Notes: a model not told the origin generated them from the sequence alone. DNA of 64,000 bases from Deltaproteobacteria bacterium (GCA_016220005.1 JACRIV010000014.1:695-64694), one strand, 5' to 3'; positions 30,772 through 55,317 are shown, counted from the first letter of the stretch. Numbers and translations are program-made.

Positions 30772-30876
30772 TACTCCATCCGGAAAGGAGGGATGAGCGC
30801 GCCGTCCACGTTATTGAAGTGGCTTGTTTAAGGCTCGCATGGAACGCATGAGCGCAACACAAAAAAGGAGGAAAGG

Positions 30877-36165: not shown

Positions 36166-36202
36166 GGGAAGAGTACGGCTTCCTTTTGCAGGAGAGCGGG
36201 AC

Positions 36203-37357: not shown

Positions 37358-37359
37358 CC

Positions 37360-39677: not shown

Positions 39678-41585
39678 ATGGCTCTTTCCGCCGCAGAGAC
39701 CTTCGGCAATCTCGCGAAGAACAGCCGCCTGCAGAACGCGCTGATCGCCCTGTTCTTCCTGGGCATCTCGGCCCTGTTTTTCAACAAGATCTTCACCAGC
39801 GACTATGGCATTCACCTGTCCATCGGCAAGCACTTCATCGAAACCGGCAAGGTTCCCGACAAGGAATTCATGAACTACCCGCTTCTGAATCAACCAATGA
39901 ACTACGAGGAACTCGGTTTCCAGGCCATTCTCTACACGGTCTATCGCGTGGTGGGATCGGACGGCGTCTCCGTGTTCGTCTGGCTGATGGCCACGCTCTC
40001 CTTTTTCTTCATCTACAAATCGCTGCGGGCAAGGGACATCAACCCCTATATCGCCCTGTTCACCATGCTGATTTTCGCGATGCCGTTCCGGATTCGCCTG
40101 CAGCCCAGGCCGGAGATCATCGCCTACTTCTTCACCTCGTACCTGATCTACGGATGTTCGCTTTTCTACTACAAGGGAAACCGGAAAATCCTCTACACGT
40201 TCCCGCTGGTTTTCCTGTTGTGGGCCAACATCCACCCCTCGACGCTGGCCGGGATCGGGGCTGTGGGCGCATTCGGGACGCAAAGCCTCGTGGTGATCTA
40301 CCGGGACAAATTCGCCAAGGCTTCCCTGAAAAACAACCTGTTCGTCCCGCTGGGGATTTTCGTTCTCTGCGTTCTCGCCACGTTCCTGAGCAAGCACGGG
40401 GTTGAAAGCGTGTTGACCCCCGTGAGGCTAATGGTCAACCCCAACCAAATGACCGGTATCTCGGAGATGACCTCCGTGAAGAATTCCGGCTTTTACGAAT
40501 TCTATAAATACATTCTCGCGGTAAGCGTGGTGTTCGGAGCGCTTGGCCTCATTGCCTGGAAATTGAAGATCCACGACATCATCATGGCCGTGTACGGCTT
40601 GAAGCTGCCCCTTCAGGTGGCCCGCGGCATGGCGTTCATGTCGGTCTTCGCCATTCCGATGGTCGCGCAGTCCTTCGACGGGTTCCTGCGGCGGATCCGG
40701 ACCTACCTGAGCCGGCGCGAGGAGGCTTCGCTCAAGGCCGGGATGAAGGCGGTGAAGGAGAAGGAGCCTTCCCGGAAGAAACAGGGGAAAAAGGTACATC
40801 CGGCCGCAGAGCAGAAACCGACCCCCGCCTCGCCTGCGCCTCTGCCCGCCCTCCGGTATTTCCGGCTGCCGATCGTCCTTGCCTGGCTGGTCTTCCTCGG
40901 GGCGACGGGCTACGGGGCCTACTACATCCGCGTGGGCACGGCGGACATCGTCGAGAACGGGATCGGCCTGACGGAGCACAAGTTCTCGCTGAAGTCCGGC
41001 GAGTTCCTGAGGAATCTTGACATCAAGGGGAACATGTTCAACTTCTTCGACCTGGGGGGGTTCGTGGAGTGGCAGGTCTACCCCCGGAAATTGACCTTCA
41101 TCGACGGTCGGGCAGGCAACCCCACGTTGTTCATGGAGCACCAGGCGATCACGTCGGGCATGGGGGACATGGAAAGCACGTTCCGGAAGTACAACATCAC
41201 CTATGTCATCACAAAGACGGTCGACTCCGCGGGGATGGTGCTGCCCCTGATCAATTACCTCGCGATGAGCCCGAGCTGGGAGCTCGTGTTCGCCGACGGG
41301 CTTGCGGTCGTTTTCGTGAAAAACATACCGGAGAACCGGGCGATTATCGACAGGTACAAGATCTCCAAGAATGTCCTCGGCGCCCAGATCGTCAGCGAGA
41401 TGTTGCATTCCACCTACCTGGGGATCAACAGGTTCTTCGTTTATTACACGATCGGGAACATCTACATGAACAGCGGCGATTATGGAAACGCCCGGAAGTT
41501 CTTCGAATTGGCGCGTTCCATCCACGACGACCCGAATTTGGCGGCCCTCGTCAGCCGGCTGGACGGCATGCAAAGAATGCGCTGA
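39678..41585 (+). CDS. GT-C fold membrane glycosyltransferase (PMT/ArnT-like) with a C-terminal periplasmic TPR-like domain
   Basis: About 11 N-terminal TM helices, a KQGKK linker, further TM helices and a soluble C-terminus with a TPR-like motif (NIYMNSGDYGNARKFFELA). Lower GC than the cytochrome island. Confidence 0.5.
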   Translation: MALSAAETFGNLAKNSRLQNALIALFFLGISALFFNKIFTSDYGIHLSIGKHFIETGKVPDKEFMNYPLLNQPMNYEELGFQAILYTVYRVVGSDGVSVFVWLMATLSFFFIYKSLRARDINPYIALFTMLIFAMPFRIRLQPRPEIIAYFFTSYLIYGCSLFYYKGNRKILYTFPLVFLLWANIHPSTLAGIGAVGAFGTQSLVVIYRDKFAKASLKNNLFVPLGIFVLCVLATFLSKHGVESVLTPVRLMVNPNQMTGISEMTSVKNSGFYEFYKYILAVSVVFGALGLIAWKLKIHDIIMAVYGLKLPLQVARGMAFMSVFAIPMVAQSFDGFLRRIRTYLSRREEASLKAGMKAVKEKEPSRKKQGKKVHPAAEQKPTPASPAPLPALRYFRLPIVLAWLVFLGATGYGAYYIRVGTADIVENGIGLTEHKFSLKSGEFLRNLDIKGNMFNFFDLGGFVEWQVYPRKLTFIDGRAGNPTLFMEHQAITSGMGDMESTFRKYNITYVITKTVDSAGMVLPLINYLAMSPSWELVFADGLAVVFVKNIPENRAIIDRYKISKNVLGAQIVSEMLHSTYLGINRFFVYYTIGNIYMNSGDYGNARKFFELARSIHDDPNLAALVSRLDGMQRMR

Positions 41586-41588
41586 TCG

Positions 41589-42623
41589 ATGAAGGGGACC
41601 GGCACCCTTTTCCTATCCGTCGTCATCGTCAACTGGAACGGCAGGCATCTGCTCAAAGAATGCCTCGATTCGATCCTCGCCCAGGGGGATGAGGATCTCG
41701 AGGTCATCGTCGTCGACAACGGATCCCGGGACGGCTCGCCCGATTTCCTGAAATCCCACTATGCCCGAAAGATCCTGCTGATCGAGCTCGCGACGAACGA
41801 AGGGTGGTCGGGCGGGAACAACAAGGGGATCGAGAGCTCCCACGGCGAATACGTCCTGCTTCTGAACAACGACGTCTGCCTGGGAAGCGATTTTTTCCGG
41901 CGTCTCCGCGAAGGGATCTCGATGCATCCCGGCGCGGGGATGTACGCCACGAAAATCCTCAATTACCACGATCGTTCGGTCATCGACAACACCGGGCACG
42001 TCATCTTCTGGGACGGCACGGCACGCGGCAGAGGACGGCGGAGAAAAGACGGGCCGGAATTCGGGAAGGAAGAGGAAGTGCTCTGCCCGAGCGGCGCCGC
42101 CGGCGTCTACAAGAGGGAAATCTTCGAAAATGTCGGCCCGATCGACGACGATTACTTTACCTACGGGGAGGACACCGAGCTGGGCCTCAGGGCGAGGCAG
42201 GCCGGCTACCGGTGCTATTACCTCCCCTCCGCGGTCCTCTACCACAAATACTCCGCATCCGGCGGGCCGTTCACCCCCCGGAAAATCTATTACGTGGAAA
42301 GGAACCGGGTTTGGACCGTCATCAAGCTCTTCCCATGGTACCTTGTCGCCGTTTCCCCCGTGATGACGATGGCGAGGTACGTCTTCGGGCTGTACGGGCT
42401 GGTTTCCGGGAAGGGGGCCTTGGGGAAGCTGCGGGAGAGCTATTCTTCGAGGGAAGCCATCGGCTCCCTCGTGCGTGCCTATGCGGACGCATTGAGGAAG
42501 GTCCGCGTGATGTGGAGGAAACGACGGTCGCTGCGGGAGACGTCAAAGCTCAGCGACGGGGATTTCGTGCGGATGCTGTACCGTTTTTCAGCGGGCATAA
42601 GGGAAGTGAGCTACAACGATTAG
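41589..42623 (+). CDS. family 2 glycosyltransferase (rhamnosyltransferase-like)
   Basis: SVVIVNWNG...VIVVDNGSRDGS...NNDV motifs and YGEDTELGLR (DXD/ED region). Confidence 0.8.
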   Translation: MKGTGTLFLSVVIVNWNGRHLLKECLDSILAQGDEDLEVIVVDNGSRDGSPDFLKSHYARKILLIELATNEGWSGGNNKGIESSHGEYVLLLNNDVCLGSDFFRRLREGISMHPGAGMYATKILNYHDRSVIDNTGHVIFWDGTARGRGRRRKDGPEFGKEEEVLCPSGAAGVYKREIFENVGPIDDDYFTYGEDTELGLRARQAGYRCYYLPSAVLYHKYSASGGPFTPRKIYYVERNRVWTVIKLFPWYLVAVSPVMTMARYVFGLYGLVSGKGALGKLRESYSSREAIGSLVRAYADALRKVRVMWRKRRSLRETSKLSDGDFVRMLYRFSAGIREVSYND

Positions 42624-42655
42624 GACCCGAGGGATCGGGGACGGGTAACCGCGGA

Positions 42656-43570
42656 ATGCCAGGAAACGGCGGAAGACGCGTCATCGGGCCGGCGAAGGAA
42701 AATATTTGCGCGGTCGTCGTCACCTTCAACCCCGACCCCGGTTTTCCGGAGCGCATGGCAGGGATTGCAGGACAGGTGAGCAGGATCGTGGTCGTGGACA
42801 ATTGCTCGGCCCCGCGGGCCAGGGACATGCTGAATGCCACCTGTGTTCGGCCCGATGTCGACCTGATCCTCAATGACGAAAATCTCGGCGTGGCGGCAGC
42901 CTTGAACCAGGGTGTGCGCCGCGCCGGGGAAAGGTCCCTCCGATGGGTCCTCGCCCTGGACCAGGATTCCACGGCGGAGGGATTCCTCGTGGAGACGCTC
43001 ATCGATGCTTTCAACCACTATCCGGGGAAAGAGAGGATCGCCGTCATCGGGTCGAACTACTTCGATGAAAAGAGGGGGAAGCGATTCATCAAGAACGATC
43101 GTGCCGATCCTCCTTGGATCGAGCAGACGACGGCCATCACATCCGGGAGCCTGCTCTCGATCTCGGCGTTCGAACGCTTCGGTCCTTTCCGTGAGGATTT
43201 CTTCATCGACCACGTCGACGACGAATACTGTCTGAGGGCGCTTTCGAAAGGGTTCAAGGTGATCCTGTGCCGCCGGCCCGTGATCCGGCATCCCATCGGG
43301 GCGGCGATGGCAATACCCCTGTTCGGGAAGCCGGTCTGGACTTCCGGCCATTCCGGGATCCGGCGTTATTACATGATCCGGAATTTCGTCGTTTTGGCCC
43401 GGGAATACCTCTTCACACGGCCGGGATGGATCCTTTCGCGTGCTTACCGGCACGCCGCCTTTGCGGTTTTGGCGCTGCTGTTGGAACCCAGCAGGGGGGA
43501 AAAGCTGCGGATGATGGTGAGGGGGATGCGTGACGGGCTTGCCGGGAGGATGGGCAGGCTCCCCGCCTGA
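42656..43570 (+). CDS. family 2 glycosyltransferase
   Basis: ICAVVVTFNPD...VVVDNCS...ALDQD and DHVDDEYCLRA motifs. ATG at 42656. Confidence 0.75.
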   Translation: MPGNGGRRVIGPAKENICAVVVTFNPDPGFPERMAGIAGQVSRIVVVDNCSAPRARDMLNATCVRPDVDLILNDENLGVAAALNQGVRRAGERSLRWVLALDQDSTAEGFLVETLIDAFNHYPGKERIAVIGSNYFDEKRGKRFIKNDRADPPWIEQTTAITSGSLLSISAFERFGPFREDFFIDHVDDEYCLRALSKGFKVILCRRPVIRHPIGAAMAIPLFGKPVWTSGHSGIRRYYMIRNFVVLAREYLFTRPGWILSRAYRHAAFAVLALLLEPSRGEKLRMMVRGMRDGLAGRMGRLPA

Positions 43571-43581
43571 GACCTACAGGT

Positions 43582-44457
43582 TCAGACGTGGTGGCGCCGC
43601 GCGGTCACCTTGGCCTGAAGCGTCGAGAAGGCAAACCGTGCGAGGTGGCTTCTCCGGAGGAGCTCCATGCCGCCTCGGCGTATGACCTTGAGCAGGGATT
43701 TGCGCACAGCCGACATCCGGACGTAATCCTTGTCGATGTATTCGTTGAAGATCCTCCAGCCGTCGCCGAAAAACGCAGGGTCTTTAATGTACTCCCAGGT
43801 CAACTGGCCCTCGTGCCGCCGGAACTTCGAAAGCGGCTCGGGGAGGAAGACGAAATCCCCCTGTTCCAGGAGATGGAACCACATCTCCAGGTCGATGAGC
43901 TGCTTGTACGTCGTTGTGAAGCCCCGCTCCGCGTGGATTTTCCGGAACAGCACGGAAGTCGGCTCGCCGATGAGGTTTCCCTTCAAAAGACATCTCTTGA
44001 TCACGTTGAATCCGTTGTCTTCGACGAAGCGGTCGGAATAGGAGAGCACCTTCAGGGGGCGAAGGCTGTCGTTCACCAACATCCTTGCCGAGCCCGCGAG
44101 GCTTGCGCGGGGATGGGATTCCATCGCCGACACGAGCTTCTCGAGGCACGCCGGCTCAAGGAGGTCGTCGGCGCAAAGGATCTTGATGTAGTCCCCGGCG
44201 GCGTATTTCAAGCACAGGTTGAAGTTGCCGGTCTGGCCGACGTTCCTTTCGTTCCGGTAGTACCTGATCTTTGCGCCGGAGTCGATGTACTTCCGAACGA
44301 TATCGGGCGTCTTGTCGGTGGAGCAGTTGTCCACGACGACCAGTTCGTAGTCGGGGAAGGTCTGCGCAAGCACCGAACCGACGGCGTCCGGCAGGTAGTG
44401 CGCGTAGTTGTAAGTCGGTATGCAGACGCTGACTTTGGGGGGATTGTGATCGACCAT
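43582..44457 (-). CDS. family 2 glycosyltransferase
   Basis: VSVCIPTYNYAHYL...VVVDNCSTDKT...CADD motifs. Start chosen at the internal ATG (MVDHNPPKVS). Confidence 0.75.
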   Translation of the reverse strand: MVDHNPPKVSVCIPTYNYAHYLPDAVGSVLAQTFPDYELVVVDNCSTDKTPDIVRKYIDSGAKIRYYRNERNVGQTGNFNLCLKYAAGDYIKILCADDLLEPACLEKLVSAMESHPRASLAGSARMLVNDSLRPLKVLSYSDRFVEDNGFNVIKRCLLKGNLIGEPTSVLFRKIHAERGFTTTYKQLIDLEMWFHLLEQGDFVFLPEPLSKFRRHEGQLTWEYIKDPAFFGDGWRIFNEYIDKDYVRMSAVRKSLLKVIRRGGMELLRRSHLARFAFSTLQAKVTARRHHV

Positions 44458-44546
44458 GTCGGGTGTCCCGCGGGTGACTCCTATGCTAACATCTTGAAAT
44501 AAGGTGTGGCAATCGCTTTGAATTTGCTGGGTTTCCGGGGAGGCGG

Positions 44547-45572
44547 ATGCGGCAGGAGACGGATGGCCGATTGGGGGTGAACGGGCAACGCGTCTCCGTC
44601 GCCATGTGCACTTACAACGGTGGCGCTTTTTTGCGTGAGCAACTCGACAGTATTGCTTCGCAGACACGGCTCCCGGACGAGACGGTGGTATTCGACGACA
44701 GGTCTTCGGACGCGGACGCTACCGTGGAGATACTGAAAGATTTTGCCGCCAAGGCTCCTTTCCCCGTCCGGGTCACGGTAAACACGCAGAACATCGGCTC
44801 CACGAAAAATTTCGAGCAGGCGATACGAGCCTGTACCGGCGGCATCATCGTTCTTTCCGACCAGGACGATGTCTGGCTTCCGGACAAGCTGGCGCGTATC
44901 GAAGCGGTTTTCTCTTCCTCTCCAAGGATTGGCGTAGTGTTCACCGATGGGGAGGTCGTGGATGATGCCCTTCGCCCTTTGGGCTACCGACTCTGGCAGG
45001 CCTTCGGGTTCACGCGAAAGATGCAGCGGCGGCTGTCGACGGGGGAGGCCACGGAGGTGCTGCTCAAGTATAACGTGGTCACCGGTGCGACGATGGCGTT
45101 CCGGTCCGAATATGTCCCCCTCGTGGTTCCCTTTCCGGAAAGCTGCGTGCACGACTGGTGGATCGCACTCCTGGTTTCCTTCATCGCCGACCTTGCGATG
45201 ATCCCGGAACCTCTCATCAAATACCGCCAGCACTCCGCGAACCAGATCGGGGGAATAAAGCTCGACTGGTCAGGGAAAGTCGGAAGGGCGCGCGGCGTCG
45301 GAGAGGATGTCCTCCGGGAAGTTGCCGACGGATACCGGGCGGCCTACGACAGGCTTTGCTCTCGTGCGTCATCCCTTAAGAGGGAAGAATTGCTGTCCCG
45401 GCTTGCCGAGAAGGTCCGTCACTTCGAGGCCCGCAGCGGACTGCCGGACACGGTATTCGGGCGGTTGCCGGTGACCATCAAGGAATTGGTTTCGCTTCGG
45501 TACCACAGGTATTCTCTGGGCACGAAGAGCTTTTTCAAGGACTTGTTTCTGCACCCGGCCGGCCCGCGATAG
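44547..45572 (+). CDS. family 2 glycosyltransferase (WbbL-type rhamnosyltransferase-like)
   Basis: VSVAMCTYNGGAFL...VVFDDRSSD...SDQDD motifs. RBS GGGGAGG. Confidence 0.75.
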   Translation: MRQETDGRLGVNGQRVSVAMCTYNGGAFLREQLDSIASQTRLPDETVVFDDRSSDADATVEILKDFAAKAPFPVRVTVNTQNIGSTKNFEQAIRACTGGIIVLSDQDDVWLPDKLARIEAVFSSSPRIGVVFTDGEVVDDALRPLGYRLWQAFGFTRKMQRRLSTGEATEVLLKYNVVTGATMAFRSEYVPLVVPFPESCVHDWWIALLVSFIADLAMIPEPLIKYRQHSANQIGGIKLDWSGKVGRARGVGEDVLREVADGYRAAYDRLCSRASSLKREELLSRLAEKVRHFEARSGLPDTVFGRLPVTIKELVSLRYHRYSLGTKSFFKDLFLHPAGPR

Positions 45573-45725
45573 GTTCACATATGGTAAAAATAGTTTTTAA
45601 ATCATGAAGTCGCAAATGGCACATCCCCCTCGAATCCACATCGCAAATGATATCCTCAAAATGAAAGCGTTATCGGGTTTACGTGTTGTTTTCTCTTTAT
45701 GTCGTAGTTCCTTGAGTAGCTTGGG

Positions 45726-46739
45726 TCAATGCTTTTTAAAAACAGATGTGTATGTTCCTCCCCATCCTTCAAGCCGCTGTAAATTTTTAATCACCAAGTG
45801 AAAAACGGGCATATCGATAATCCTTAACGCCATTCTTGACAAACGGGAAATTTGATTTTTTATTTTATAACTCGCAGCAGTGCGGTGTTTATCCGACGCA
45901 CTATCATGAAAGTCCTCTTCAAGGGATTCCTTCTTTATGAGTGAATACAAATATCTGATTGCATGACTGACGGATAAATCCCACCAATTGTATCTGCTGA
46001 AATTAACGCTTCCTTCGTCCCTTGTTGTTACAAGGGCAGTTTCCAATCCTTGAGATTCGGCGACTTTTGTAAGCACCGCCGGGGGAATAAGTGTTAAATG
46101 GCGGGGAGCGTCCAAATGAGCCCAGAAACGATGAAAAATCTTGAATTGAAGAGATTTTGGATTAGGAGTGGCGATAATAAGTATTCCATCTGGATTCAGT
46201 TTTTCGGATGCGGCCTTAATCACAGCCAAGGGATCGGGTAGGTGCTCTATGACGTGCCAGAGAGCGATCACATCGTATAGGGTTGCCTCGTTTAGTCTTG
46301 AACAGATATCCGTGCTATTTATGACACTTACACCAACCACATCGGACAGAAATTTACAGCAACGTTCATCCATTTCCATCGTATCGACATGAAACCCAGC
46401 CCTTTTCGCGAGAAATGCGAATACTCCGTAGGCCGGCCCGATTTCCAGAAGTTTACCATGGGAGGTGTACGTTAATAGGAGATCAAGCTTATATTTTTCC
46501 TGTTCGGCCTTCTGCGCCAATCCATTTATAGTGGGCAAATCATACGCCGGATAATAATCCGGATAAAAACGACTCATATTTTCCGGGATTGGATGGAGGA
46601 AAATCACTCCGCAACTTTTGCAGATGTAATATTTAAACGATTCATGAGAAAGTCTCAGGTTGAAATCGAACGTATCGAAGTAGTGTGTTCCTTCTTTGTT
46701 GCAAAACGGGCAAGGTCTCCGCATATTAAAAACTCTCAT
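45726..46739 (-). CDS. class I SAM-dependent methyltransferase with an N-terminal zinc ribbon (sugar C-/O-methyltransferase-like)
   Basis: CPFCN...CKSCG zinc ribbon. The SAM motif LLEIGPAYGVFAFLAKRAG and ALWHVIEHLPDP. Sits in AT-rich DNA. Confidence 0.65.
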   Translation of the reverse strand: MRVFNMRRPCPFCNKEGTHYFDTFDFNLRLSHESFKYYICKSCGVIFLHPIPENMSRFYPDYYPAYDLPTINGLAQKAEQEKYKLDLLLTYTSHGKLLEIGPAYGVFAFLAKRAGFHVDTMEMDERCCKFLSDVVGVSVINSTDICSRLNEATLYDVIALWHVIEHLPDPLAVIKAASEKLNPDGILIIATPNPKSLQFKIFHRFWAHLDAPRHLTLIPPAVLTKVAESQGLETALVTTRDEGSVNFSRYNWWDLSVSHAIRYLYSLIKKESLEEDFHDSASDKHRTAASYKIKNQISRLSRMALRIIDMPVFHLVIKNLQRLEGWGGTYTSVFKKH

Positions 46740-46747
46740 TGCTGTTG

Positions 46748-47626
46748 TTATCCTTTTATCGCAGACACGCCCCAAGCCGATGCCGACAAGGCCTGTTTCA
46801 TATTTACATTGCCGTTTGAATATCGTCGCGTCTGATTATCGGCGATCAATAAATTTCCTTGATCTCCCTGCCAGAACGTATTGCTTTTATCCCAATCCTC
46901 TTTTTCGTAGCACGTTCCATCCCTACCGACCACCAGCACTTTTAGATTCCTTCTCAATACCTGTTTCGTCAAACTGTTTTTGCCGCTTTCAAATCTGTGG
47001 ACATCATTTTTTGTGCATATTTTGCTTAGTTTTATGCTCATCATAAGATCTCGCGAGATGACAAATCCATTGGTGCGTATGTGGTAATTCGGGAAGGGGT
47101 CGTATTGTGTTCCATATTTCTTTTCAAGAAATCGCCTGATTATATTCGCATGTAAATTTCTGATGGCAATAGGGACGTGAATTACCCTGCCTGCAATGGG
47201 TATGTTTTCTCGAATGGCAGGCATGCCTAACACATTTGTGTAGTGACTTTCCCACGATCCGGTTGCTCCGGCAACACCGACGAAACTTTGTTGTATGACC
47301 TTATACAACTTTAAGAGCCAATCTTTATCTAATATTATGCTGAATGAGTTTAAAAAGCAAAAATATCGATAGTTATATTTATTCGCAACCTTAAAATATG
47401 GAACCAGATCAAATCCAATGTCTGAGACAACATATTTTTTATGAGGGATATTCCTTAATAATTTGGAATAATCAGAAATACTTTTTTTTGAGTGGAATCC
47501 TTTGAATATGAATAAGAGGTCGTGTTCGACTCCCCCTTTGTATTTTAAGTAAGAATCTATAAACCTCTCGAAGGGAGTTAATCCGTTTTTAGCGCGGACC
47601 AAATGGGAAACGCAGATTTCCGCCAT
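46748..47626 (-). CDS. hypothetical protein (no recognisable family), in the AT-rich glycan island
   Basis: 292-aa ORF in roughly 25-30% GC DNA. Intact ATG. Its context between the methyltransferase and Wzx suggests a glycan-modifying enzyme. Confidence 0.4.
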   Translation of the reverse strand: MAEICVSHLVRAKNGLTPFERFIDSYLKYKGGVEHDLLFIFKGFHSKKSISDYSKLLRNIPHKKYVVSDIGFDLVPYFKVANKYNYRYFCFLNSFSIILDKDWLLKLYKVIQQSFVGVAGATGSWESHYTNVLGMPAIRENIPIAGRVIHVPIAIRNLHANIIRRFLEKKYGTQYDPFPNYHIRTNGFVISRDLMMSIKLSKICTKNDVHRFESGKNSLTKQVLRRNLKVLVVGRDGTCYEKEDWDKSNTFWQGDQGNLLIADNQTRRYSNGNVNMKQALSASAWGVSAIKG

Positions 47627-47657
47627 TCTATAGCAATCCTGAAGACTATATTTACAA

Positions 47658-49175
47658 TTATATTACAGTTAGATATCTGCTAAATTCCTGCTTCAGCCAT
47701 TCGCGTGTATGCGAAAACAGGAGAAAAGAGAATAACAGGGAAAGAGTAAATGTCGAAAACACCCAGAGAGTTGAGGAGGATAGGGAAGCATTGCTTGGGA
47801 AAAGCAATCTGGAGAACAGGACAATCACGAATACGGCGATGAGGGGAGAGCCCACATCGGAAAGATACCATTGCCACATCTGGTCCTTGAAGATCCGTGA
47901 GTGCATGAAAGGGATCTCGATCAGAAAATATCCTGCGTTGAGGAGAATCCATATAATCGCTGCGCCGACCGAGCCGTACGTCGTGACCAAGACGATAAGG
48001 AGCGGCACCAATATGATCACGGCGATCAAGTTCTTGTAAAAAGACAATTTTGTCCAGCCGTATGACAGTTGAAGCGTATAGGGGAGGATCATAATAGAGT
48101 TCAACAAGGTTCCGGTAAGAAGAAGGCTCATCAGCAGATGTGTGTTCCGGACCGTCCCTGGATCGTTGATCCACAATAAAAGGATTTCGCGGGAGTAGAA
48201 TATTGCGGTGATAGCCACCGGAAAGACAACAACCGAGAGAAACTGGCATCCCCTGTGATAAAGCGCGGAAAGTTCCAGTTCCTTCCCCTCCGCCACTAGT
48301 TGCGAGAACTTGGGGAACAATGCCGCGAAAACAGGGTGAACCAGGAGATTCAATGCGTTTGCGACGTTGAAGGCCAGGATGTAATACCCGAACATCTCGA
48401 GACTCAGGAGCTTGCTGAGGACGATTTTGTCCAGCTGGGTGAGGATCGTCGCGACAACCGAAATCCCCGTCATGCCGGCGGCAAATTTCCAATGTTTTTC
48501 CAGAAGGGATTTATTGAAAGAGCTTTTCACACCTGTTTCGGGGAGAGAGGACCATAAGCATGCGCCGAGGAGACATGTCTGAGAAACGCTTACGAGAATT
48601 TGCCACTTGAAGTAGGCTTCGATGGTCGGGGAAATGAGCCACAGGACCAACACCGCCCCGACGGCTTGGACGGTCGCCATTCCGGTCCGGACGACATTAA
48701 ACAGCACTTGACGTTGCAATCCCATAAGGCCGCCCGTGTAAAAAGCGGCCGGCCACTCGAATGCAACCACGATCCCCATGACCTCCAGGGCCTTCTCCAC
48801 GGTGCCTACGCTTATGCCTTTGGTATTCAACCATTTTTGCGCGATTTTGGGTGCGCAGGCGAGGATGCCGATTGCAATGAGGATGCCGATTCCCCAATAG
48901 ATGATCTCCATGGTTCGGACGAGTTCCCGCGATTCCTGTTCATTGCCCGGAACCGCGGAGAGGCGCGCCAACTCCCTGCTGACAGTTGAGCTCAGTCCCA
49001 GGTCCAGGATGGAAAGCAGGCCGATCAGGGAGATATAAACTCCAATAAGCCCATACGATTCAATACCGAGAAACTTGATGTAAAGGGGGACGAAGACAAT
49101 GCTGATGATTGCGGTCCATCCCTTGCCCGCGAAGTTGGCGATGATGTTCCGCCGGATGCTGGGAGGGGAGGTCAT
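47658..49175 (-). CDS. wzx: Wzx-type oligosaccharide flippase (MOP superfamily)
   Basis: 505 aa with about 14 TM helices and the typical polysaccharide-biosynthesis-protein topology. Its start overlaps the stop of the reductase gene (ATGA). Confidence 0.7.
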   Translation of the reverse strand: MTSPPSIRRNIIANFAGKGWTAIISIVFVPLYIKFLGIESYGLIGVYISLIGLLSILDLGLSSTVSRELARLSAVPGNEQESRELVRTMEIIYWGIGILIAIGILACAPKIAQKWLNTKGISVGTVEKALEVMGIVVAFEWPAAFYTGGLMGLQRQVLFNVVRTGMATVQAVGAVLVLWLISPTIEAYFKWQILVSVSQTCLLGACLWSSLPETGVKSSFNKSLLEKHWKFAAGMTGISVVATILTQLDKIVLSKLLSLEMFGYYILAFNVANALNLLVHPVFAALFPKFSQLVAEGKELELSALYHRGCQFLSVVVFPVAITAIFYSREILLLWINDPGTVRNTHLLMSLLLTGTLLNSIMILPYTLQLSYGWTKLSFYKNLIAVIILVPLLIVLVTTYGSVGAAIIWILLNAGYFLIEIPFMHSRIFKDQMWQWYLSDVGSPLIAVFVIVLFSRLLFPSNASLSSSTLWVFSTFTLSLLFSFLLFSHTREWLKQEFSRYLTVI

Positions 49176-50023
49176 GCCTTGAGGTATCTCGCAAGGGCGT
49201 CCCGCCAGTGCGGCAGCCTGATTCCCAAAAAGGCGGCCTTCCCGTTGGCAAGTACTGAATAGAGCGGGCGACGCATGGTTCCCGATAATCCCTTCCTGTC
49301 AACAGGCGTCACTTTCACGTCAAGTCCCAGAACCTCGTAAATTGCTTTCGTGAACTCGTACCAGGTGCATTCGCCCTCGTTGACGAGGTGGAAGAGGCCG
49401 GGCGCGGCTCTGCGGTGTTCGATCAGCGCCAGGACGGCCTTCGAAAGATCGTCGGTCGATGTCGGGCAGACGACCTGGTCGCAGCTCATTTCGAGTTCGC
49501 GCATCTTGGCGGCGTCGGCGATCCGATTGTCGACGAAGTTCCCGCCCTTGGAAACCGCGCCGGAACGGCCGTAGAGCCCGCAAGTCCGGATGACGATGGC
49601 GGAGTCCGGGGCGGTTGATAGGGCGGCATGTTCGCCGGCCAGCCTGGAAATGCCGTACATCTGCAAGGGGGCCGGCCGGTCGTCTTCCAGGTAAGGCGTG
49701 CGCTTGTCGCCTCCGAAGACGTAGTCGGAGCTGAAGGTGACGAGGCGGCAACCGGCGTCGCGGCAGATCGCTGCGAGGTCGCGGACGGCGACGCAGTTGA
49801 CCCGGAACGCCGTAAGGGGCTCGACTTCGCACTGGGGGACATTGTGGAATGCCGCCGTGTTGATGACGACGTCCGGCCGGTGATCGCCGATGACGGACTC
49901 GATAGCCCCCCGGGAGGTCACGTCGAGCACTTCTCGCCCCGGAGCGAAGATATCGTGTCCCCCGGCGTTCCGGAGGATGTCGCCGCCCAGCTGGCCCGTC
50001 TTGCCGATGAGGAGAATTTTCAT
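49172..50023 (-). CDS. NDP-4-dehydro-6-deoxyhexose 4-reductase, RmlD (dTDP-4-dehydrorhamnose reductase) family
   Basis: 283 aa. [13 protein letters not shown] Rossmann motif and the YxxxK catalytic motif MYGISRLAGE. The ORF-track start at 50425 is an extension. Confidence 0.8.
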   Translation of the reverse strand: MKILLIGKTGQLGGDILRNAGGHDIFAPGREVLDVTSRGAIESVIGDHRPDVVINTAAFHNVPQCEVEPLTAFRVNCVAVRDLAAICRDAGCRLVTFSSDYVFGGDKRTPYLEDDRPAPLQMYGISRLAGEHAALSTAPDSAIVIRTCGLYGRSGAVSKGGNFVDNRIADAAKMRELEMSCDQVVCPTSTDDLSKAVLALIEHRRAAPGLFHLVNEGECTWYEFTKAIYEVLGLDVKVTPVDRKGLSGTMRRPLYSVLANGKAAFLGIRLPHWRDALARYLKA

Positions 50024-50562
50024 CCGGAAGACTGCTTCCCGAAAAGAGGGTAGGACCGATCTTTCCGGGAGATGACGGGGTTGTCCAGCGGCCACCGGAT
50101 CCCGAACGCAGGGTCGTCCCAACGGACGCCGCTTGCATGCTCGGGGGAGTAGAACTCGAACATCTGGTAGAAGACTTCGGTGTCGTCGGAAAGCGTCTGA
50201 AAGCCGTGCGCGAACCCCTCGGGGATGTAGAACATCTTTAGATTGCTTTCCGTCAGTTCCAGTGCTGTCCACCTGCAATATGTGGGGGAGTTGGAGCGAA
50301 GGTCCACGATGACGTCGTAAATTGACCCGCGGGCGCACCGCACCAGCTTGGCTTCGGCTTTCGGCGGCAGTTGGAAGTGCATCCCGCGCAAGGTGCCTTT
50401 CTTCCTGTTGAAGGAAACGTTGCACTGCGCCACGTCGAACTTGAGGCCGTATTGTGCGAACTCCTTCCGGCAGAAGCTGCGGGCAAAATACCCCCGCTCA
50501 TCCTCCATCGGCTGGAGATCGATGACATACGCGCCTTTCAGCGCCGTTTCCGTGAAGATCAC
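50020..50562 (-). CDS. NDP-4-dehydro-6-deoxyhexose 3,5-epimerase, RmlC cupin family
   Basis: 180 aa. [13 protein letters not shown]...RGMHFQ...EGFAHGF motifs. GTG start forming a GTGA overlap with the upstream stop. Confidence 0.75.
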
Positions 50563-51794
50563 TCGACGACCCGGACTTCCGGAATGGGGAGGATGAATTT
50601 TCCGCCCCTTTCGCGGTAAGCCTTCTGTTGCTCCAAGATCTCCTCCGCGAAGTTCCACGCCAGGATCAGCACGTAGTCGGGCATGTCCGCAAGGAGCCTG
50701 TCGGGGGGATGGACGGGCAGGTGCATGCCGGGTGTGAAGAGGTTCTGCTTGTAAGGGCTCTTGTCGACCGTGTATGCGACGAGGTCCGTCGAAATGCCGC
50801 AGTAGTTGAGAAGGGTGTTCCCCTTCGCCGGGGCGCCGTACGCCGCGACGCGCATCCCGGAGGACTTGAGCTCCTTGAGCAGTCGAATGAGATCGGACTT
50901 GATCTTTGCGGTCCTCCGGGCGAATTCGACGTAGGTCTCTTTCGCGTGGAGCCCCTTCCTTGCCTCCTCTTCCAAGTGCCGCGGGACCGTGCCGGCGACC
51001 GGTCGGGATTTCTGGTGGGAAATGTAATAAATGATCGACCCGCCGTGGATCGGTACGTGCTCCAGATCGAAGAGCTCCATCCCGTACAGGTTAAAGAGAT
51101 AGGACATCGCCCGGACGGAGAGGTAAGAATAATGTTCGTGATAGACCGTGTCGAATTCGGTTTTCTCCACAAAGTCCACCAGGTATGGGGCTTCGATGGC
51201 GAGGACCCCGCTGGGCGCGAGGAGGTGTTTCAGCCCCTTTACGAAATCGTGGATTTCGGGGACGTGCGCGAAGACATGGCGCGCGAGGATGACATCGGCG
51301 GGGCCGAATCGCTCCTTGATGGTCCGGGAGGTTTTTTCGTTGAAGAAGTCGACGAAAGTGTCGATGCCGGACTCGATGGCGACCCGGGCGATGTTTGCGG
51401 CGGGTTCCACACCCAGGACTTTCACTCCGGTCTTCTTGAAATAATGCAGGACGGTCCCGTCGTTGCTGGCGATCTCGACGACGCGGGAATTTTCGTTCAG
51501 GCCGAATCGTTCCTTGAAAGAGGCCGCGAGATAGTCGGAATGCCTGTGGACCAGATCCGACGTGGCGGAAAAATAGATGTAATCGGAGAAGAGCGCTTCC
51601 GGTGGCACGACGTACCCGATCTGGACGAGCCCGCACTCCTCGCAGAGGTACAGGTCCAGCGGGTATTTCGGCTCATTCCCTTTTTTCAGGGATTCCTCGG
51701 TGAGGAAGCTGTTCGCCAGCGCCATCGTGCCGAAGTCAATGATCTTGCAGATGGATTCTTTGCCGCAGAATCTGCAGCGCACGGGCGGTCTCAT
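50559..51794 (-). CDS. TylCIII/NovU-type sugar C-methyltransferase (zinc-ribbon + class I methyltransferase + C-methyltransferase C-terminal domain)
   Basis: CRFCGKES...CEECG zinc ribbon. SAM motif [12 protein letters not shown]. Length (411 aa) and the C-terminal domain are characteristic of deoxysugar C-methyltransferases. Confidence 0.65.
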
Positions 51795-51800
51795 TCTTGA

Positions 51801-52919
51801 TCAGGAAATTTGGCCCAACGGGCTGTTCTCGTATTGCCCGATCTGGCGGAGGCAGACTTCCCGAAGGTCCCCTTTCTCCTTGTAGGCCCTCGTCCAGGCG
51901 ACCACCCGGTCGATGGCGTCCTCGAGGTTCCAACGGGGGGACCAGCCCAGCCGGGTTCTTGCCTTGGAGCAATCCAGCTTGAGGAAGTGCGTCTCGTGGG
52001 GATGCTCTCCCTTGTCGACCTCGTAGGAAGCGCCGGGACCCCAAGCCTTGCAGAACCGGCGGACGATCCATTCCACCGGCTGGGCGCCGTGGTCTTCCGG
52101 GCCGAAATTCCATCCCTCGGCGTAGGCCGGCCCGTCCTCGACCAGTCTCTGCGCCAGGGTGAGGTACCCGCTCAACGGCTCCAGCACGTGCTGCCACGGT
52201 CGGACGGCGCGGGGGTTGCGGACCCGGATCTTTTCCTGCTTCAGGATGGCCCGGACGCAGTCCGGGACCAGCCGGTCCTGCGCCCAGTCGCCGCCGCCGA
52301 TGACGTTGCCGGCCCTTGCCGAAGCGACCCCGACGCCGTGGGTTTTGTAGTCACGGGGGTTGAAAAAGGAGCTCCGGTAGGCGGAGGTGACCAGCTCCGA
52401 GCACGCCTTGCTGCTGGAGTAGGGGTCGTACCCGCCGAGCGGCTCGTTTTCCCGGTATCCCATGACCGATTCCCGGTTCTCGTAGCATTTGTCCGTCGTG
52501 ACGTTGACGACGGCCCTCACGCTTGCGCACTTGCGGACGGCTTCGAACAGGTTGACGGTGCCCATGACGTTCGTGGAATACGTTTCCACCGGGTCCCGGT
52601 ACGACTCCCTTACGAGGGGCTGGGCCGCCATGTGAATGACGACGTCCGGCCGGCTGTCCGCCATCGACCTCGATAGCTTGTCGCCGTCCCGGATGTCGGA
52701 AACGACTGACTTCACGAGCGTGTCGACGCCGCACAGCTCGTAGAGGCTCGGTTGTGTCGGCGGTTCCAGCGCATACCCCGTGACTTCCGCTCCCAGGCGG
52801 TGCAACCAGAGGGAGAGCCACGCCCCCTTGAACCCGGTGTGCCCGGTCAGGAAGACCCTCCTGTTCTTCCAGAATCCTTTCAATCCCACACTTTCCACGG
52901 CGCTTTTCCGGCGCGCCAC
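51801..52919 (-). CDS. rfbG: CDP-glucose 4,6-dehydratase
   Basis: FWKNRRVFLTGHTGFKGAWLSLWL, YDPYSSSKAC (YxxxK) and the overall RfbG/DdhB architecture. Probable GTG start. Confidence 0.8.
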   Translation of the reverse strand: MARRKSAVESVGLKGFWKNRRVFLTGHTGFKGAWLSLWLHRLGAEVTGYALEPPTQPSLYELCGVDTLVKSVVSDIRDGDKLSRSMADSRPDVVIHMAAQPLVRESYRDPVETYSTNVMGTVNLFEAVRKCASVRAVVNVTTDKCYENRESVMGYRENEPLGGYDPYSSSKACSELVTSAYRSSFFNPRDYKTHGVGVASARAGNVIGGGDWAQDRLVPDCVRAILKQEKIRVRNPRAVRPWQHVLEPLSGYLTLAQRLVEDGPAYAEGWNFGPEDHGAQPVEWIVRRFCKAWGPGASYEVDKGEHPHETHFLKLDCSKARTRLGWSPRWNLEDAIDRVVAWTRAYKEKGDLREVCLRQIGQYENSPLGQIS

Positions 52920-53656
52920 GACGCCTCGAGCTGGTTCTTGTCCCGCATCGTGTCCATCGGCTGCCAGAAGCCGCGGTGCCTGTAGGCGACGAGCTCCCCG
53001 TTCTTCGCCAGGTGCTCAAGCGGCTCATTCTCGAAGACGGTATTGTCGCCTTCGAGGTAGTCGAAGATTCCGGGCTCGAGGACGAAGAAGCCGGCGTTGA
53101 TCCATCCCCCGTCGCCCTTCGGCTTCTCCCGGAACCCCAGGACCCGGTCGTTCTCCCCCAGGTCCAGCGCTCCGAACCGGCCGCCCGGCTGTGCGGCGCT
53201 GATCGTTGCCAGCCTGCCGTGGGACCGGTGATAGGACACAAGGTCCTTGATGTTGATGTCCGACACGCCGTCTCCGTAGGTGAGCATGAACGGCCGGTTG
53301 TCCGTGTATTGCCGGATCCTCTTGACCCTGCCGCCCGTCATGGTGTCGTTACCGGTGTTCACCAGGGTAACTTTCCATGGCTCGGCGGTGTGGGTATGGA
53401 TCTCCCGCTCGGTCGGCTTCCGGAAGTCGAAGGTGACGTCGGACTCGTGCAGGAAGTAGTGCGCGAAATATTCCTTGATGACGTATCCCTTATACCCGAG
53501 GCAGATGATGAAATCGTCGAACCCGTAATGCGAGTACAGCTTCATGATGTGCCAGAGGATCGGCTTCTCCACGATCTCGATCATCGGCTTCGGCTTGAGA
53601 TGCGATTCCTCGCTGATCCTGGTGCCGAACCCTCCGGCCAGAATGACCACCTTCAT
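52880..53656 (-). CDS. rfbF: glucose-1-phosphate cytidylyltransferase
   Basis: MKVVILAGGFGTRISEESHLKPKPM and the RfbF/DdhA-type C-terminus ...RGFWQPMDTMRDKNQLEASW. Confidence 0.85.
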   Translation of the reverse strand: MKVVILAGGFGTRISEESHLKPKPMIEIVEKPILWHIMKLYSHYGFDDFIICLGYKGYVIKEYFAHYFLHESDVTFDFRKPTEREIHTHTAEPWKVTLVNTGNDTMTGGRVKRIRQYTDNRPFMLTYGDGVSDINIKDLVSYHRSHGRLATISAAQPGGRFGALDLGENDRVLGFREKPKGDGGWINAGFFVLEPGIFDYLEGDNTVFENEPLEHLAKNGELVAYRHRGFWQPMDTMRDKNQLEASWRAGKAPWKVWD

Positions 53657-54000
53657 TTCGGATCGCCCTCCTTCACCTCTTCCTTCAGCAGCGCCAGCTC
53701 CTGGGCCATCCTCTTGTTCATCTGGTGGAGCTTCGAGATCGCGATCGAAAAGTGGATCAGGATGAGCATGATGAAGAGGATGCCGACGAGGAACAAAAGG
53801 GAGGGGGGGTAGGCGATCCCGACGATGCGCGACAGGCGGATCAGCCAATCCTGCTTCACCGACAGGACGAGGATCACCATGCTCCCGCAGAGCCACAGGA
53901 TCGAGTACTCCTCCCGGAGGCGGCGCCGCCGGACCATCTCGAGAATGTAGACGAGGAGGGCGGCGGACATGCACACCGAGAGAAGGGTCACCCTGCTCAA
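53653..54000 (-). CDS. DUF2304 family small membrane protein (partner of a polyprenol-phosphate glycosyltransferase)
   Basis: 115 aa, 3-4 TM helices. ATGA/TTGA overlaps with both neighbours. Typically found paired with a DPM1-like GT2. Confidence 0.5.
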   Translation of the reverse strand: MSRVTLLSVCMSAALLVYILEMVRRRRLREEYSILWLCGSMVILVLSVKQDWLIRLSRIVGIAYPPSLLFLVGILFIMLILIHFSIAISKLHQMNKRMAQELALLKEEVKEGDPK

Positions 54001-54704
54001 CCGAATCTCCTAATGGCGTTAATGAGGAAAGAGAGCGTCACCTTAACCATATAATATATCGCCCCGAACGTCGTTATGGAGGATTTTCCCTCGACGCGGG
54101 CGTACATCCGGACCGGGACCTCCGCCGTTCCGGCCCCGAGGCGGTGCATCAGGATGTAGGCGTCCACCTCCGGGTAGTCGGAAGGGTAGTGGCGCGAATA
54201 GAACTCGATCAGCCGGCGGTTGATGGCGAAGAAGCCGGACGTGGGGTCGGTCACGCGGTAACCGGTGAAGAGGTTCACCAGGGACCGGAAGAACCGGATG
54301 CCGAAGATGCGGGGGATCGACCCGCGGTATCCCGCCTCCCCAAGGAACCTGGAGCCGATCGCCGCATCGGCCTTGCCCGCCAAGATGGGCTCGAGCACCC
54401 GGGGGATGTCCTCGATCTCGTGCTGCCCGTCGCCGTCGATCCGTACGAGCGCCTCGTAGCCCCGGTCGCGGGCGAACAGGAACGCCGTCTGTGCGGCGCC
54501 GCCGATGCCCAGGTTGCAGGGAAGGTCCAGTACGGTGGCCCCGGCCGACCTTGCCGCGGCAGAGGTCGCGTCCGTAGACCCGTCGTTGACCACGAGGACG
54601 TCGTAGGGGAATCTCCGCCTGAGGGCGGAGACGATCTGCCCGATCGTCTGCTCCTCCTGGAACGCGGGGATGGCGATCAGGACGCGATGCGGGGGTCTGT
54701 CCAT
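53997..54704 (-). CDS. polyprenol-phosphate sugar synthase, GT2 (DPM1/GtrB/ArnC-like)
   Basis: VLIAIPAFQEE...VLVVNDGSTD...DGDGQH motifs, 235 aa. Start at the internal ATG (ORF track 54893). Confidence 0.75.
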   Translation of the reverse strand: MDRPPHRVLIAIPAFQEEQTIGQIVSALRRRFPYDVLVVNDGSTDATSAAARSAGATVLDLPCNLGIGGAAQTAFLFARDRGYEALVRIDGDGQHEIEDIPRVLEPILAGKADAAIGSRFLGEAGYRGSIPRIFGIRFFRSLVNLFTGYRVTDPTSGFFAINRRLIEFYSRHYPSDYPEVDAYILMHRLGAGTAEVPVRMYARVEGKSSITTFGAIYYMVKVTLSFLINAIRRFG

Positions 54705-54738: not shown

Positions 54739-55317
54739 CTACTGCACGACCTTTTCGATCTCCTTCTTGAGCTGGGGAGGCGCCACGGTGCCGACCGCAG
54801 AGAACGCGACAACCCCTTTCTTGTCGATGAGGAAGAGAGCGGGAGTCCCCGCGACCCCGTAAGGGTCTGCGACCATGAAGGAGTCTCCCACAAGCTCGTC
54901 GAACACGATCCGGAACGCGATTTTCTCGTTCACGACGAACTTGTCGATCGCCTTTTTCAACTCCTTGCCGTCGAGGTTCACGCCGACGACGTGGAGCCCC
55001 TTCCCGTAATATTGCTTCGTCATATCGTTGATCAGCGGGATCTCCTCCCGGCACGGGCCGCAGAAGAACGACCAGAAGAAAAGCAGGACCGCCTCCTTGC
55101 CGCCGCGGTCCTTGAGGCGGAACTCCTTGTCGGCGAGATCCCTGACCGCGAAGTCGGGCGCCGTGCTGCCGACCTTCAGGGTCTCTATCCCCTTGACCGT
55201 CGGGATCTTGGTGTAGGAACTTCCCTTGCTCTCCTGCGCCGCCGACCACCCGCTGGAAACAGCGACGGTTACGGCAACGGTGATCGCGACGATAGAAACG
55301 GCCATCCCGCTTTTCAT
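54739..55317 (-). CDS. TlpA-like periplasmic thioredoxin (CGPC)
   Basis: Signal peptide. AVLLFFWSFFCGPCREEIPLI. The 474-aa ORF-track entry is a frame extension over the next gene. Confidence 0.75.
   Translation of the reverse strand: MKSGMAVSIVAITVAVTVAVSSGWSAAQESKGSSYTKIPTVKGIETLKVGSTAPDFAVRDLADKEFRLKDRGGKEAVLLFFWSFFCGPCREEIPLINDMTKQYYGKGLHVVGVNLDGKELKKAIDKFVVNEKIAFRIVFDELVGDSFMVADPYGVAGTPALFLIDKKGVVAFSAVGTVAPPQLKKEIEKVVQ

Follow-up and report, generated by a model that had tools for sequence, protein, structure and literature searches.

The DNA considered here comes from a Deltaproteobacteria bacterium (GCA_016220005.1, JACRIV010000014.1:695-64694), the source being a metagenome-assembled genome (MAG) of the candidate phylum MBNT15/Candidatus Deferrimicrobiaceae. 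The whole stretch analysed, called the window below, is 64,000 nucleotides long, with a G+C content of about 62–64%. The locus at issue occupies positions 39678-54704 and extends from a 635-residue polytopic membrane protein of the GT-C type to a short family 2 glycosyltransferase (GT2) and its DUF2304 neighbor, with further GT2s, a flippase and a nucleotide-sugar pathway between them. An earlier note, made from the sequence alone, had listed one GT-C enzyme, five GT2s, a flippase, the nucleotide-sugar pathway and the DUF2304 protein, and each was indeed found in its place when genes were called from third-position GC (GC3) together with Pfam and NCBIfam matches (Table 1). The locus is best read as a lipid-carrier system of the GacIJKL/PpgS type that employs a new family of GT-C enzymes, resembling oligosaccharyltransferases (OSTs) and ending in a tetratricopeptide repeat (TPR) tail.

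Gene content of the locus

Between about 15 kb and 43.6 kb, the genes of the plus strand form a single long co-directional string that passes from cytochrome genes through two GT2s. It starts with a pyridine-nucleotide oxidoreductase, a cytochrome c3, and the ResB and CcsA proteins of System II cytochrome c maturation, followed by a 13-haem cytochrome, a TlpA–TPR fusion, a 5-haem cytochrome and a second such fusion. Next come a Fer4_5 polyferredoxin, a sigma-54 two-component pair, an NHL beta-propeller protein and a 14-haem cytochrome, and then a TlpA protein, a PpiC rotamase, another TlpA protein, a 7-haem cytochrome, two more TlpA proteins and an 8-haem cytochrome. The 635-residue protein and the two GT2s complete the string. 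The open reading frame of the 635-residue protein begins 3 nt after the stop of the 8-haem cytochrome gene and ends 3 nt before the first GT2, which confirms that it directly follows the last cytochrome gene.

The opposite strand holds an operon that reads from 55874 down to 45726 and consists of a TlpA pair, the 235-residue GT2, DUF2304, the CDP-sugar genes, Wzx, a 292-residue protein and a methyltransferase. The TlpA-like thioredoxin pair lies 34 nt upstream of the GT2 in the same direction and forms the right-hand flank of the glycan cassette; one related locus, L027, shows the same two-thioredoxin flank. Genes of the cytochrome maturation type are thus found on both sides of 39.7–54.7 kb, and the glycan cassette is bracketed by them. 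The DUF2304 gene has an AGGAG ribosome-binding site and overlaps the GT2 stop by 4 nt, an overlap kept in L007. Judging by the annotations, the genes at 49172-53656 form a complete CDP-sugar route, the predicted product being CDP-6-deoxy-3-C-methyl-L-hexose, a vinelose-like sugar. The methyltransferase and 292-residue genes make up a low-GC island (45726-47626; GC 42% against about 62%, GC3 0.42) that looks like a horizontally acquired module; both are kept in L003 and L006, at about 47% identity. A scan for promoters and terminators gave counts close to the shuffled expectation and was uninformative.

Table 1. Genes of the glycan cassette and of the neighboring cytochrome string (window coordinates)
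Feature	Position	Strand	Support or remark
ResB	17351-18730	+	Pfam ResB, E 6.6e-107
CcsA	18777-19616	+	Pfam Cytochrom_C_asm, E 4e-57
Fer4_5 polyferredoxin-like protein	24058-24948	+	Pfam Fer4_5, E 3.7e-15
NHL beta-propeller gene	29098-30771	+	precedes 14-haem cytochrome
14-haem cytochrome, 740 aa	30877-33099	+	Pfam; 14 CXXCH
7-haem cytochrome	36062-37357	+	Pfam
TlpA/ResA-like thioredoxins (two)	37327-37935, 37932-38471	+	Pfam
8-haem periplasmic cytochrome c, signal peptide	38481-39674	+	Pfam cytochrome families; 8 CXXCH
GT-C-fold glycosyltransferase (from model), 635 aa, unannotated family	39678-41585	+	intact open reading frame, GC3 0.85
GT2, 344 aa, rhamnosyltransferase/EpsD-like	41589-42623	+	Pfam Glycos_transf_2, E 1.1e-23; NCBIfam
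GT2, 304 aa	42656-43570	+	Pfam, E 2.2e-11
GT2, 291 aa	43582-44457	-	Pfam, E 1.3e-34
GT2, 341 aa	44547-45572	+	Pfam, E 1e-22
Methyltransf_23 methyltransferase	45726-46775	-	Pfam; true start probably internal
292-aa protein	46748-47626	-	no Pfam/NCBIfam match
Wzx/MOP flippase, 505 aa	47658-49175	-	Pfam Polysacc_synt, E 4.7e-20; NCBIfam MOP flippase
RmlD-like reductase	49172-50023	-	Pfam
RmlC-like epimerase	50020-50562	-	Pfam
TylCIII-type C-methyltransferase	50559-51794	-	Pfam
CDP-glucose 4,6-dehydratase	51801-52919	-	TIGR02622, 508 bits, above cut-off
Glucose-1-phosphate cytidylyltransferase	52880-53656	-	TIGR02623, 429 bits, above cut-off
DUF2304 small membrane protein, 115 aa, GacJ/Rv3632-like	53653-54000	-	Pfam, E 5.6e-26, 91 bits (cut-off 25.5)
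GT2, 235 aa, no transmembrane helices	53997-54704	-	Pfam; NCBIfam best PpgS 1.4e-26, AglJ 4.6e-21, dolichyl-phosphate hexose transferase
TlpA/ResA-like thioredoxins (two)	54739-55317, 55329-55874	-	Pfam AhpC-TSA/Redoxin

The Pfam and NCBIfam scans of the window proteins yielded no priming phosphoglycosyl transferase, Wzy, WaaL, Wzz/chain-length regulator or ATP-binding cassette (ABC) exporter. Apart from the 635-residue protein, the membrane proteins of the window are of the major facilitator superfamily (MFS), DedA, ResB, CcsA, Wzx and ArsP-type permease kinds; no second polytopic protein with a large periplasmic domain was found, in keeping with the claim that the window has a single GT-C enzyme. 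A second, small glycan-related module lies at 3248-6067 on the minus strand, with an MFS transporter (3248-4486), a GT2 (4488-5258) and a DedA/VTT-domain membrane protein (5255-6067). Proteins of the DedA family have been connected with the recycling of undecaprenyl phosphate.

The cytochrome string has features of its own. Seven TlpA/ResA-like thioredoxins alternate densely with six multihaem cytochromes between 16873 and 39674 on the plus strand, two of the thioredoxins being fused to TPRs (20980-21990 and 22741-23892), which suggests that each cytochrome has its own dedicated thiol reductase. The propeller and 14-haem cytochrome genes (29098-33099) resemble the make-up of OmcE-type nanowire clusters (10.1101/2025.10.22.684050).

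Fold, conserved residues and relatives of the 635-residue protein

Sequence models place the protein in no glycosyltransferase family. Pfam gave only a sub-threshold TPR match (residues 587-615) and NCBIfam nothing; among 32 family members, taken to E values of 10, and 36 distant members, TPRs were likewise the only matches. The hidden Markov model (HMM) of STT3 found nothing in either set, the PMT and PMT_2 models (GT39/GT83, ArnT) did not match the window protein, YfhO matched neither the protein nor its family or distant members, and a profile search of PDB sequences returned TPR proteins only. A full-length AlphaFold2 model built on 32 homologues was more informative, with a mean predicted local distance difference test (pLDDT) score of 82 and a predicted template-modelling (pTM) score of 0.80. 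It has about 11 transmembrane helices (residues 16-421), the N-terminal membrane domain having the GT-C arrangement, a Lys-rich disordered cytoplasmic loop (363-392) before the last helix (397-421), an alpha/beta periplasmic domain of the OST type (422-560), and, at the end, a short TPR-like tail of four helices (566-633). In a Foldseek search of PDB, the top 14 matches were STT3, PglB or AglB (E 3e-8 to 4e-6), followed by ArnT, AftD and AftA; AftA, AftB, AftD and ArnT are all significant, and every fold match is a GT-C enzyme. The alpha/beta core uniquely resembles AglB-S2 and has the OST core fold. With its membrane and alpha/beta domains, the modelled protein thus contains both modules of an OST catalytic subunit.

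Since the fold matches are GT-C enzymes only, the earlier GT-C call was right, on the strength of the fold rather than of sequence models, which could not have provided it; on this model, the protein almost certainly has the GT-C fold. The family check that had been proposed therefore ends with no STT3, PMT_2, YfhO or other GT-C family assigned, and with an OST/PMT-like fold. An O-antigen ligase or polymerase, which the earlier note had named as the outcome that would speak against it, was not what emerged: there is no Wzy_C match, and no ligase among the fold matches. The description of the protein as TPR-tailed holds weakly here, where the tail amounts to about two helical hairpins, and clearly only in distant relatives, 31 of 36 of which have genuine arrays (none of the 36 has a Pfam model for the core).

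In an alignment of 30 family members, with identities down to 34%, the invariant residues are D42, in the sequence FTSDYGIH just after the first transmembrane helix; R140, Q142, P143, R144, P145 and E146; W182, N184 and H186; S262 and E263, in a low-confidence loop of the model; R316; and the stretch M453-F-N-F-F-D-x-G-G-F462 with W465, Q466, F474, D476, G477 and R478. The wider superfamily has the consensus motifs DxDxWWHL, RxxxRP, WANxHG, NPxG, IxE, AxR, GNMFNxYxxGGYLxW and VFIDGR. D42 is at least 90% conserved there, within DxDxWWHL (TSDYGIHL in the window protein), and the helix map would place it in the first periplasmic loop. An hhalign comparison of the broad superfamily profile with Campylobacter lari PglB gave a local alignment of 269 columns (E 0.014) that pairs E263 with the TIXE glutamate of PglB, E319, and R316 with R371. 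A second alignment puts YPRKLTFIDG on YSDVKTLIDG, immediately after the WWDYG motif of PglB. The narrow family profile gave E 0.3 in local mode, and global mode was meaningless. Weak as it is, the PglB alignment agrees with the fold result. D42 is the predicted catalytic acid, and E263 and R316 are the predicted counterparts of E319 and R371.

STT3, PglB and AglB (GT66) are thus the closest known enzymes in overall fold, and PglB has WWDYG and LIDG where the window protein has a conserved aromatic-aromatic-Asp-x-Gly and FIDG. The differences are considerable, however: FFDxGG in place of WWDYG, about 11 transmembrane helices where OSTs have 13, the TPR tail, the missing STT3 match, a neighboring cytochrome without a sequon, and a donor that is probably a monophosphate-linked sugar. 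Protein O-mannosyltransferases (PMTs; GT39, with DPM1/Ppm1 donors) also differ, as neither a PMT model, a MIR domain nor a DE motif is found here.

Could the protein have lost its activity and become a GT-C-derived scaffold or chaperone, its TPR tail handling apocytochromes during maturation? Thr stands in the position of the first Asp of the superfamily's DxD motif, the gene constantly ends cytochrome maturation operons (see below), and the TPR tails of 18 of 36 relatives also match the CcmH/CycH TPR model. On the other hand, TPR models cross-match freely, polyprenol-phosphate sugar synthases recur as neighbors, and D42, R144, H186, E263 and R316 remain invariant or nearly so in a superfamily whose members share about 20% identity, a pattern that fits a catalytic site. 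A loss of activity therefore appears highly improbable.

How large is the group to which this enzyme belongs? When 1.84 billion cluster representatives were searched with a profile, 17,914 matched at E<=1e-3, 9,580 at E<=1e-10 and 1,103 at E<=1e-30; at the looser thresholds some of these may match through their TPRs only, and the top 150 all cover the membrane core and/or the C-terminal domain. The sources name them “hypothetical”, “transmembrane” or “tetratricopeptide repeat protein”. The close family comprises two clades, about 35% identical to each other and confined to MBNT15/Candidatus Deferrimicrobiaceae MAGs. At least one MAG, CTSoil_087, has one copy of each (L012 and L024), and the clades are therefore paralogues, each found behind a cytochrome maturation string.

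More distant branches have other surroundings. One with the motif KVFIDGRT has 269 metagenome relatives, 80 of which were fetched (L054-L133); in these 80 loci an oligopeptide ABC transporter (Opp) lies upstream, with GlgC (glucose-1-phosphate adenylyltransferase) and an enoyl reductase-like gene downstream. A tie of the whole superfamily to DUF2304 or cytochromes was rejected, since these 80 loci have none and two nearer outgroups are also without. In the cultured betaproteobacterium Pseudogulbenkiania ferrooxidans (ACIS01000002.1; L136, 6862-11919), a 527-residue member divergently adjoins two Flp pilin genes and a Tad pilus cluster; after it come a methyltransferase, a small flippase subunit of the ArnE/F kind and a GT2 resembling ArnC/PgfS. 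This is likely a pilin-glycosylation system, and a tractable model.

Probable donor genes and cytochrome maturation genes in related loci

From its family matches, the 235-residue GT2 is predicted to be a polyprenol-phosphate sugar synthase like GacI, PpgS or AglJ. In the Gac system, the GlcNAc-P-Und synthase GacI is bound and stimulated by GacJ, a DUF2304 protein, the other members being the Wzx-like GacK and the GT-C enzyme GacL; PpgS is bound and stimulated by Rv3632 in like manner (10.1101/180810). The locus shares with the GacI/J/K/L system of Streptococcus pyogenes and the PpgS/Rv3632 system of Mycobacterium tuberculosis a short soluble GT2, an adjacent DUF2304 protein, a Wzx-type flippase and a GT-C enzyme, and its flippase is a GacK-like candidate for flipping a lipid-linked sugar or glycan. 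The locus differs from those systems in a GT-C enzyme from a different, unannotated family, one that carries an OST-type periplasmic domain and a TPR tail, in an acceptor that is probably neither rhamnan nor arabinogalactan, and in having its genes spread over a 15-kb cassette and linked to a cytochrome maturation operon.

The pairing of the two ends of the locus, as the earlier note proposed, gains support from these precedents and from recurrent co-localization in rearranged loci and unrelated phyla. A GT2 and DUF2304 pair lies at most 10 kb from the GT-C gene in eight other MBNT15 loci (L007, L008, L009, L022, L027, L029, L037 and L039), in at least four arrangements that differ in order and orientation; the chance expectation is estimated at less than 1% per locus. 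In L022 the order is GT-C–GT2–DUF2304, directly adjacent, and in L027 the three form a single co-directional cluster with GT4s, a deacetylase and a methyltransferase. In L007, L008 and L029, GT2, DUF2304 and Wzx are contiguous, like gacIJK. L003 and L006 share the gene order of the window as far as their fetched flanks reach, which would put the pair just outside. Outside the phylum, a Candidatus Binatia locus (L053, 1908-11252; JBHIAP010000089.1) has GT2, DUF2304 and GT-C adjacent, the last an 812-residue protein with TPRs and about 23% identity. Distant relatives adjoin a 229-residue GT2 (L052), a 316-residue PgfS/ArnC-like GT2 (L051) or an ArnC-like GT2 (L136), the best matches of these neighbors being polyprenol-phosphate glycosyltransferases, including the PgfS model. 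The remaining cytoplasmic glycosyltransferases vary from locus to locus; the gene most often found directly downstream of GT-C is that of the 344-residue GT2, in 16 loci, with other genes there elsewhere.

The two ends might nevertheless not be partners, with the GT-C enzyme using another donor or serving the cytochrome operon only, and the GT2 and DUF2304 proteins serving some other transferase. The genes are 12 kb apart and on opposite strands, more than half of the 10-kb flanks do not contain the pair, and the GT2 is far more conserved (76–86% identity in more than 120 clusters) than the GT-C relatives (35–75%). In addition, a polytopic protein of 759–778 residues adjoins the GT2 and DUF2304 genes in two loci. 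These arguments are countered by the various arrangements and by the direct adjacency in L022 and in the Binatia locus; moreover, the polytopic protein does not belong to the superfamily and occurs neither in the window nor in any other locus, which disposes of it as an alternative partner, and the window has no other GT-C candidate. That the ends are unrelated is therefore improbable, and the partnership of the GT-C enzyme with the GT2/DUF2304 pair 12 kb away is probable. The 759–778-residue protein (L007, 7630-9909, and L008, 7573-9909, both minus strand) has no Pfam or superfamily-profile match, divergently adjoins GT2, DUF2304 and Wzx, is followed by a second DPM-like GT2, and may be another unannotated GT-C-type transferase.

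On its other side, the GT-C gene has a more constant company. In all 40 MBNT15 loci with upstream sequence, it is the last gene of a ResB–CcsA–Fer4_5–(TlpA)–(cytochrome) string; ResB and CcsA, which open the conserved string, have orthologues upstream of GT-C in most MBNT15 loci. The gene directly upstream encodes Fer4_5 in 19 of the 40, the 8-haem cytochrome in 15, a TlpA-like thioredoxin in four and CcsA in two. Where it is the cytochrome, the spacing is 0–8 nt, and the 15 orthologues are 64–79% identical. The order cyt431-Tlp202-Tlp179-cyt397-GT-C is kept in nine loci (L001, L005, L011, L017, L023, L027, L033, L035 and L040). In the Binatia locus, GT-C is directly followed by ccmC, ccmD, ccmE, ccmF, ccmG and ccmH, which belong to the non-homologous System I; this is an independent tie of the superfamily to cytochrome c maturation. 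In MBNT15, then, the constant neighbor of the GT-C gene is the cytochrome c biogenesis operon, and the glycan side is a variable cassette.

A similar association has been described in Desulfuromonadia, where resB/ccsB and an OmcE cytochrome cluster with beta-propeller proteins are followed by 15–70 genes for GT2, GT4 and GT39 glycosyltransferases, sugar modification, methyltransferases, exporters and TPR proteins; glycan-like densities are seen on OmcE filaments where these glycosylation genes occur and not where they are missing (10.1101/2025.10.22.684050). The OmcE and OmcS filaments of Geobacter bear surface glycans. The GT39 clusters beside omcE in Geobacter, however, belong to another phylum, and the link is only correlative.

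Proposed pathway and its acceptor

These observations suggest a pathway in which the 235-residue GT2, bound and activated by DUF2304, would use a nucleotide sugar to charge undecaprenyl phosphate on the cytoplasmic side of the membrane, a step suggested by homology and by the GacI/GacJ and PpgS/Rv3632 precedents. The Wzx-type flippase would then move the lipid-linked sugar across the membrane, possibly after the soluble GT2s and methyltransferases had extended the glycan with the CDP-6-deoxy-C-methyl-hexose of the operon. Finally, the GT-C enzyme would transfer the sugar or short glycan to a periplasmic acceptor. As a whole, this four-part lipid-carrier-dependent periplasmic glycosylation system is offered tentatively, as somewhat short of probable.

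A sub-variant differs in glycan size and mode of transfer: as in the archaeal Agl pathway, an AglJ-like GT2 would prime undecaprenyl phosphate, the four soluble GT2s, with the methyltransferases, would build an oligosaccharide on it, an AglR-like Wzx would flip it, and the product would be transferred to proteins en bloc. The parts match, with an AglJ-like GT2, soluble GT2s/GT4s, methyltransferases, Wzx and an OST-like enzyme with an AglB-type C-terminal domain, and the cytoplasmic glycosyltransferase cassette varies while GT-C and GT2+DUF2304 stay. The lack of a priming phosphoglycosyl transferase in the window and eight related loci also fits, except that such enzymes are often encoded elsewhere in the genome. 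Against it are the missing canonical OST motifs and the likeness of the GT2-DUF2304-Wzx trio to gacIJK, which flips a monosaccharide lipid. Furthermore, we know of no bacterial oligosaccharide assembled on undecaprenyl phosphate. En bloc transfer thus appears distinctly unlikely.

What would the GT-C enzyme glycosylate? A secreted protein is the preferred acceptor, at about even odds. It is favored by the OST/PMT-like membrane domain together with the OST-type C-terminal domain and TPR tail, by the fact that the gene always ends a cytochrome maturation/multihaem string, and by distant relatives that adjoin genes for other secreted-protein substrates. Known enzymes show how this might work. TfpW, the pilin arabinosyltransferase of Pseudomonas aeruginosa, is a TPR-bearing GT-C enzyme of 646 residues with 11 transmembrane helices, encoded right after its substrate gene pilA. 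The window protein is like it in size (about 640 residues), helix number, periplasmic TPR tail, GT-C fold and predicted polyprenol-phosphate-sugar donor, as compared by architecture and gene position only; TfpW, which was modelled on ArnT, carries a DDx motif. In the streptococcal GtrB/PgtC2 and PgfS/PgfM1 systems, a GtrB-type GT2 makes the undecaprenyl-phosphate sugar and a GT-C enzyme O-glycosylates extracytoplasmic proteins, and the Pgf cluster holds its adhesin substrate genes. Those GT-C enzymes, unlike the present one, belong to the YfhO family, which has a Pfam model, and target Ser/Thr-rich disordered tails; no such tails were found among the cluster proteins.

The same donor logic could serve a surface glycan, the GT-C enzyme adding a side-chain sugar from an undecaprenyl-phosphate sugar to lipopolysaccharide, O-antigen, capsule or exopolysaccharide, as GacL, Gtr, YfhO, ArnT and Rv3779 do. 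The cytochrome link would then be indirect, for example through a polysaccharide matrix that anchors extracellular cytochromes. Most characterized GT2(+DUF2304)/GT-C systems modify glycans, surface-polysaccharide loci typically have a variable cassette and low-GC inserts of the kind found here, ArnT, AftA, AftB and AftD are among the significant fold matches, and the adjacent cytochrome has no obvious glycosylation motifs. However, the best fold matches are the protein-modifying STT3, PMT, PglB and DPY19, the periplasmic domain is specifically OST-like, and TPR tails usually bind proteins. The window, moreover, is without the Wzy, WaaL, chain-length regulator, ABC exporter and priming enzyme noted above, and the conserved side of the gene is the cytochrome maturation operon, not the glycan cassette. 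A surface glycan, the main rival to a protein acceptor, is accordingly judged unlikely.

Within the protein-acceptor reading, the multihaem cytochromes of the operon are the leading candidates, and the synteny points to them much more strongly than the earlier note knew when it raised the possibility; the claim itself, for which all the evidence is synteny, is doubtful. The adjacent 8-haem cytochrome has no N-x-S/T sequon, and classical N-glycosylation of it was rejected on that ground; any linkage would use Ser/Thr or another site. The 14-haem cytochrome, with 21% Ser+Thr, a coil-rich composition and 11 NxS/T sequons, is a candidate glycoprotein substrate. Its sequons are not enriched, as 11 does not exceed the number expected from composition (P 0.41 against shuffles).

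Several observations weigh against the glycosylation system as proposed, or against parts of it. The 235-residue GT2 scores 93 bits, far short of all NCBIfam cut-offs (370 for PpgS), and of about 20 MBNT15 loci whose downstream flank is complete, only about eight showed the pair within 10 kb, to which the unequal conservation of GT2 and GT-C must be added. The Thr in the DxD motif counts as well, as do the departures from WWDYG and from 13 helices and an aromatic-aromatic-Asp triplet (FFD) that is common and not conserved across the superfamily; the PglB alignment, from one pairwise comparison (E 0.014), has little statistical weight. The KVFIDGRT branch has no GT2, DUF2304 or cytochromes nearby in its 80 loci, and neither of the two nearer outgroups has cytochrome or GT2 neighbors. 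Synteny within a phylum can reflect inheritance rather than function, and because MBNT15 genomes carry 13–55 multihaem cytochromes, some chance adjacency is to be expected. The 8-haem cytochrome lacks a Ser/Thr-rich tract as well as sequons. Acceptor, sugar and carrier lipid are all predictions. Of the earlier interpretation as a whole, the logic of a glycosylation system and the pairing of its ends are supported, and the acceptor is a matter of conjecture.

In its widest form, the proposal is that the 635-residue protein founds a large bacterial family of protein glycosyltransferases, distant kin of the OSTs, fed by polyprenol-phosphate sugars and encoded beside their substrates, and that in MBNT15 and, independently, in Binatia the family was recruited to cytochrome c maturation operons and glycosylates multihaem cytochromes. 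This is speculative and, taken all together, rather unlikely. If true, a function could be assigned to the very many proteins that at present bear no label beyond “hypothetical” or “TPR repeat protein”, the OST/PMT lineage of GT-C enzymes would reach into bacteria in a form not seen before, and extracellular electron transfer would include a dedicated cytochrome-glycosylation step. The Pseudogulbenkiania ferrooxidans relative beside the Flp pilin genes offers a cultured handle on the superfamily. For the glycosylation of multihaem cytochromes, the locus provides a concrete genetic candidate, and the question may be reduced to a defined set of three or four genes plus the cytochrome.

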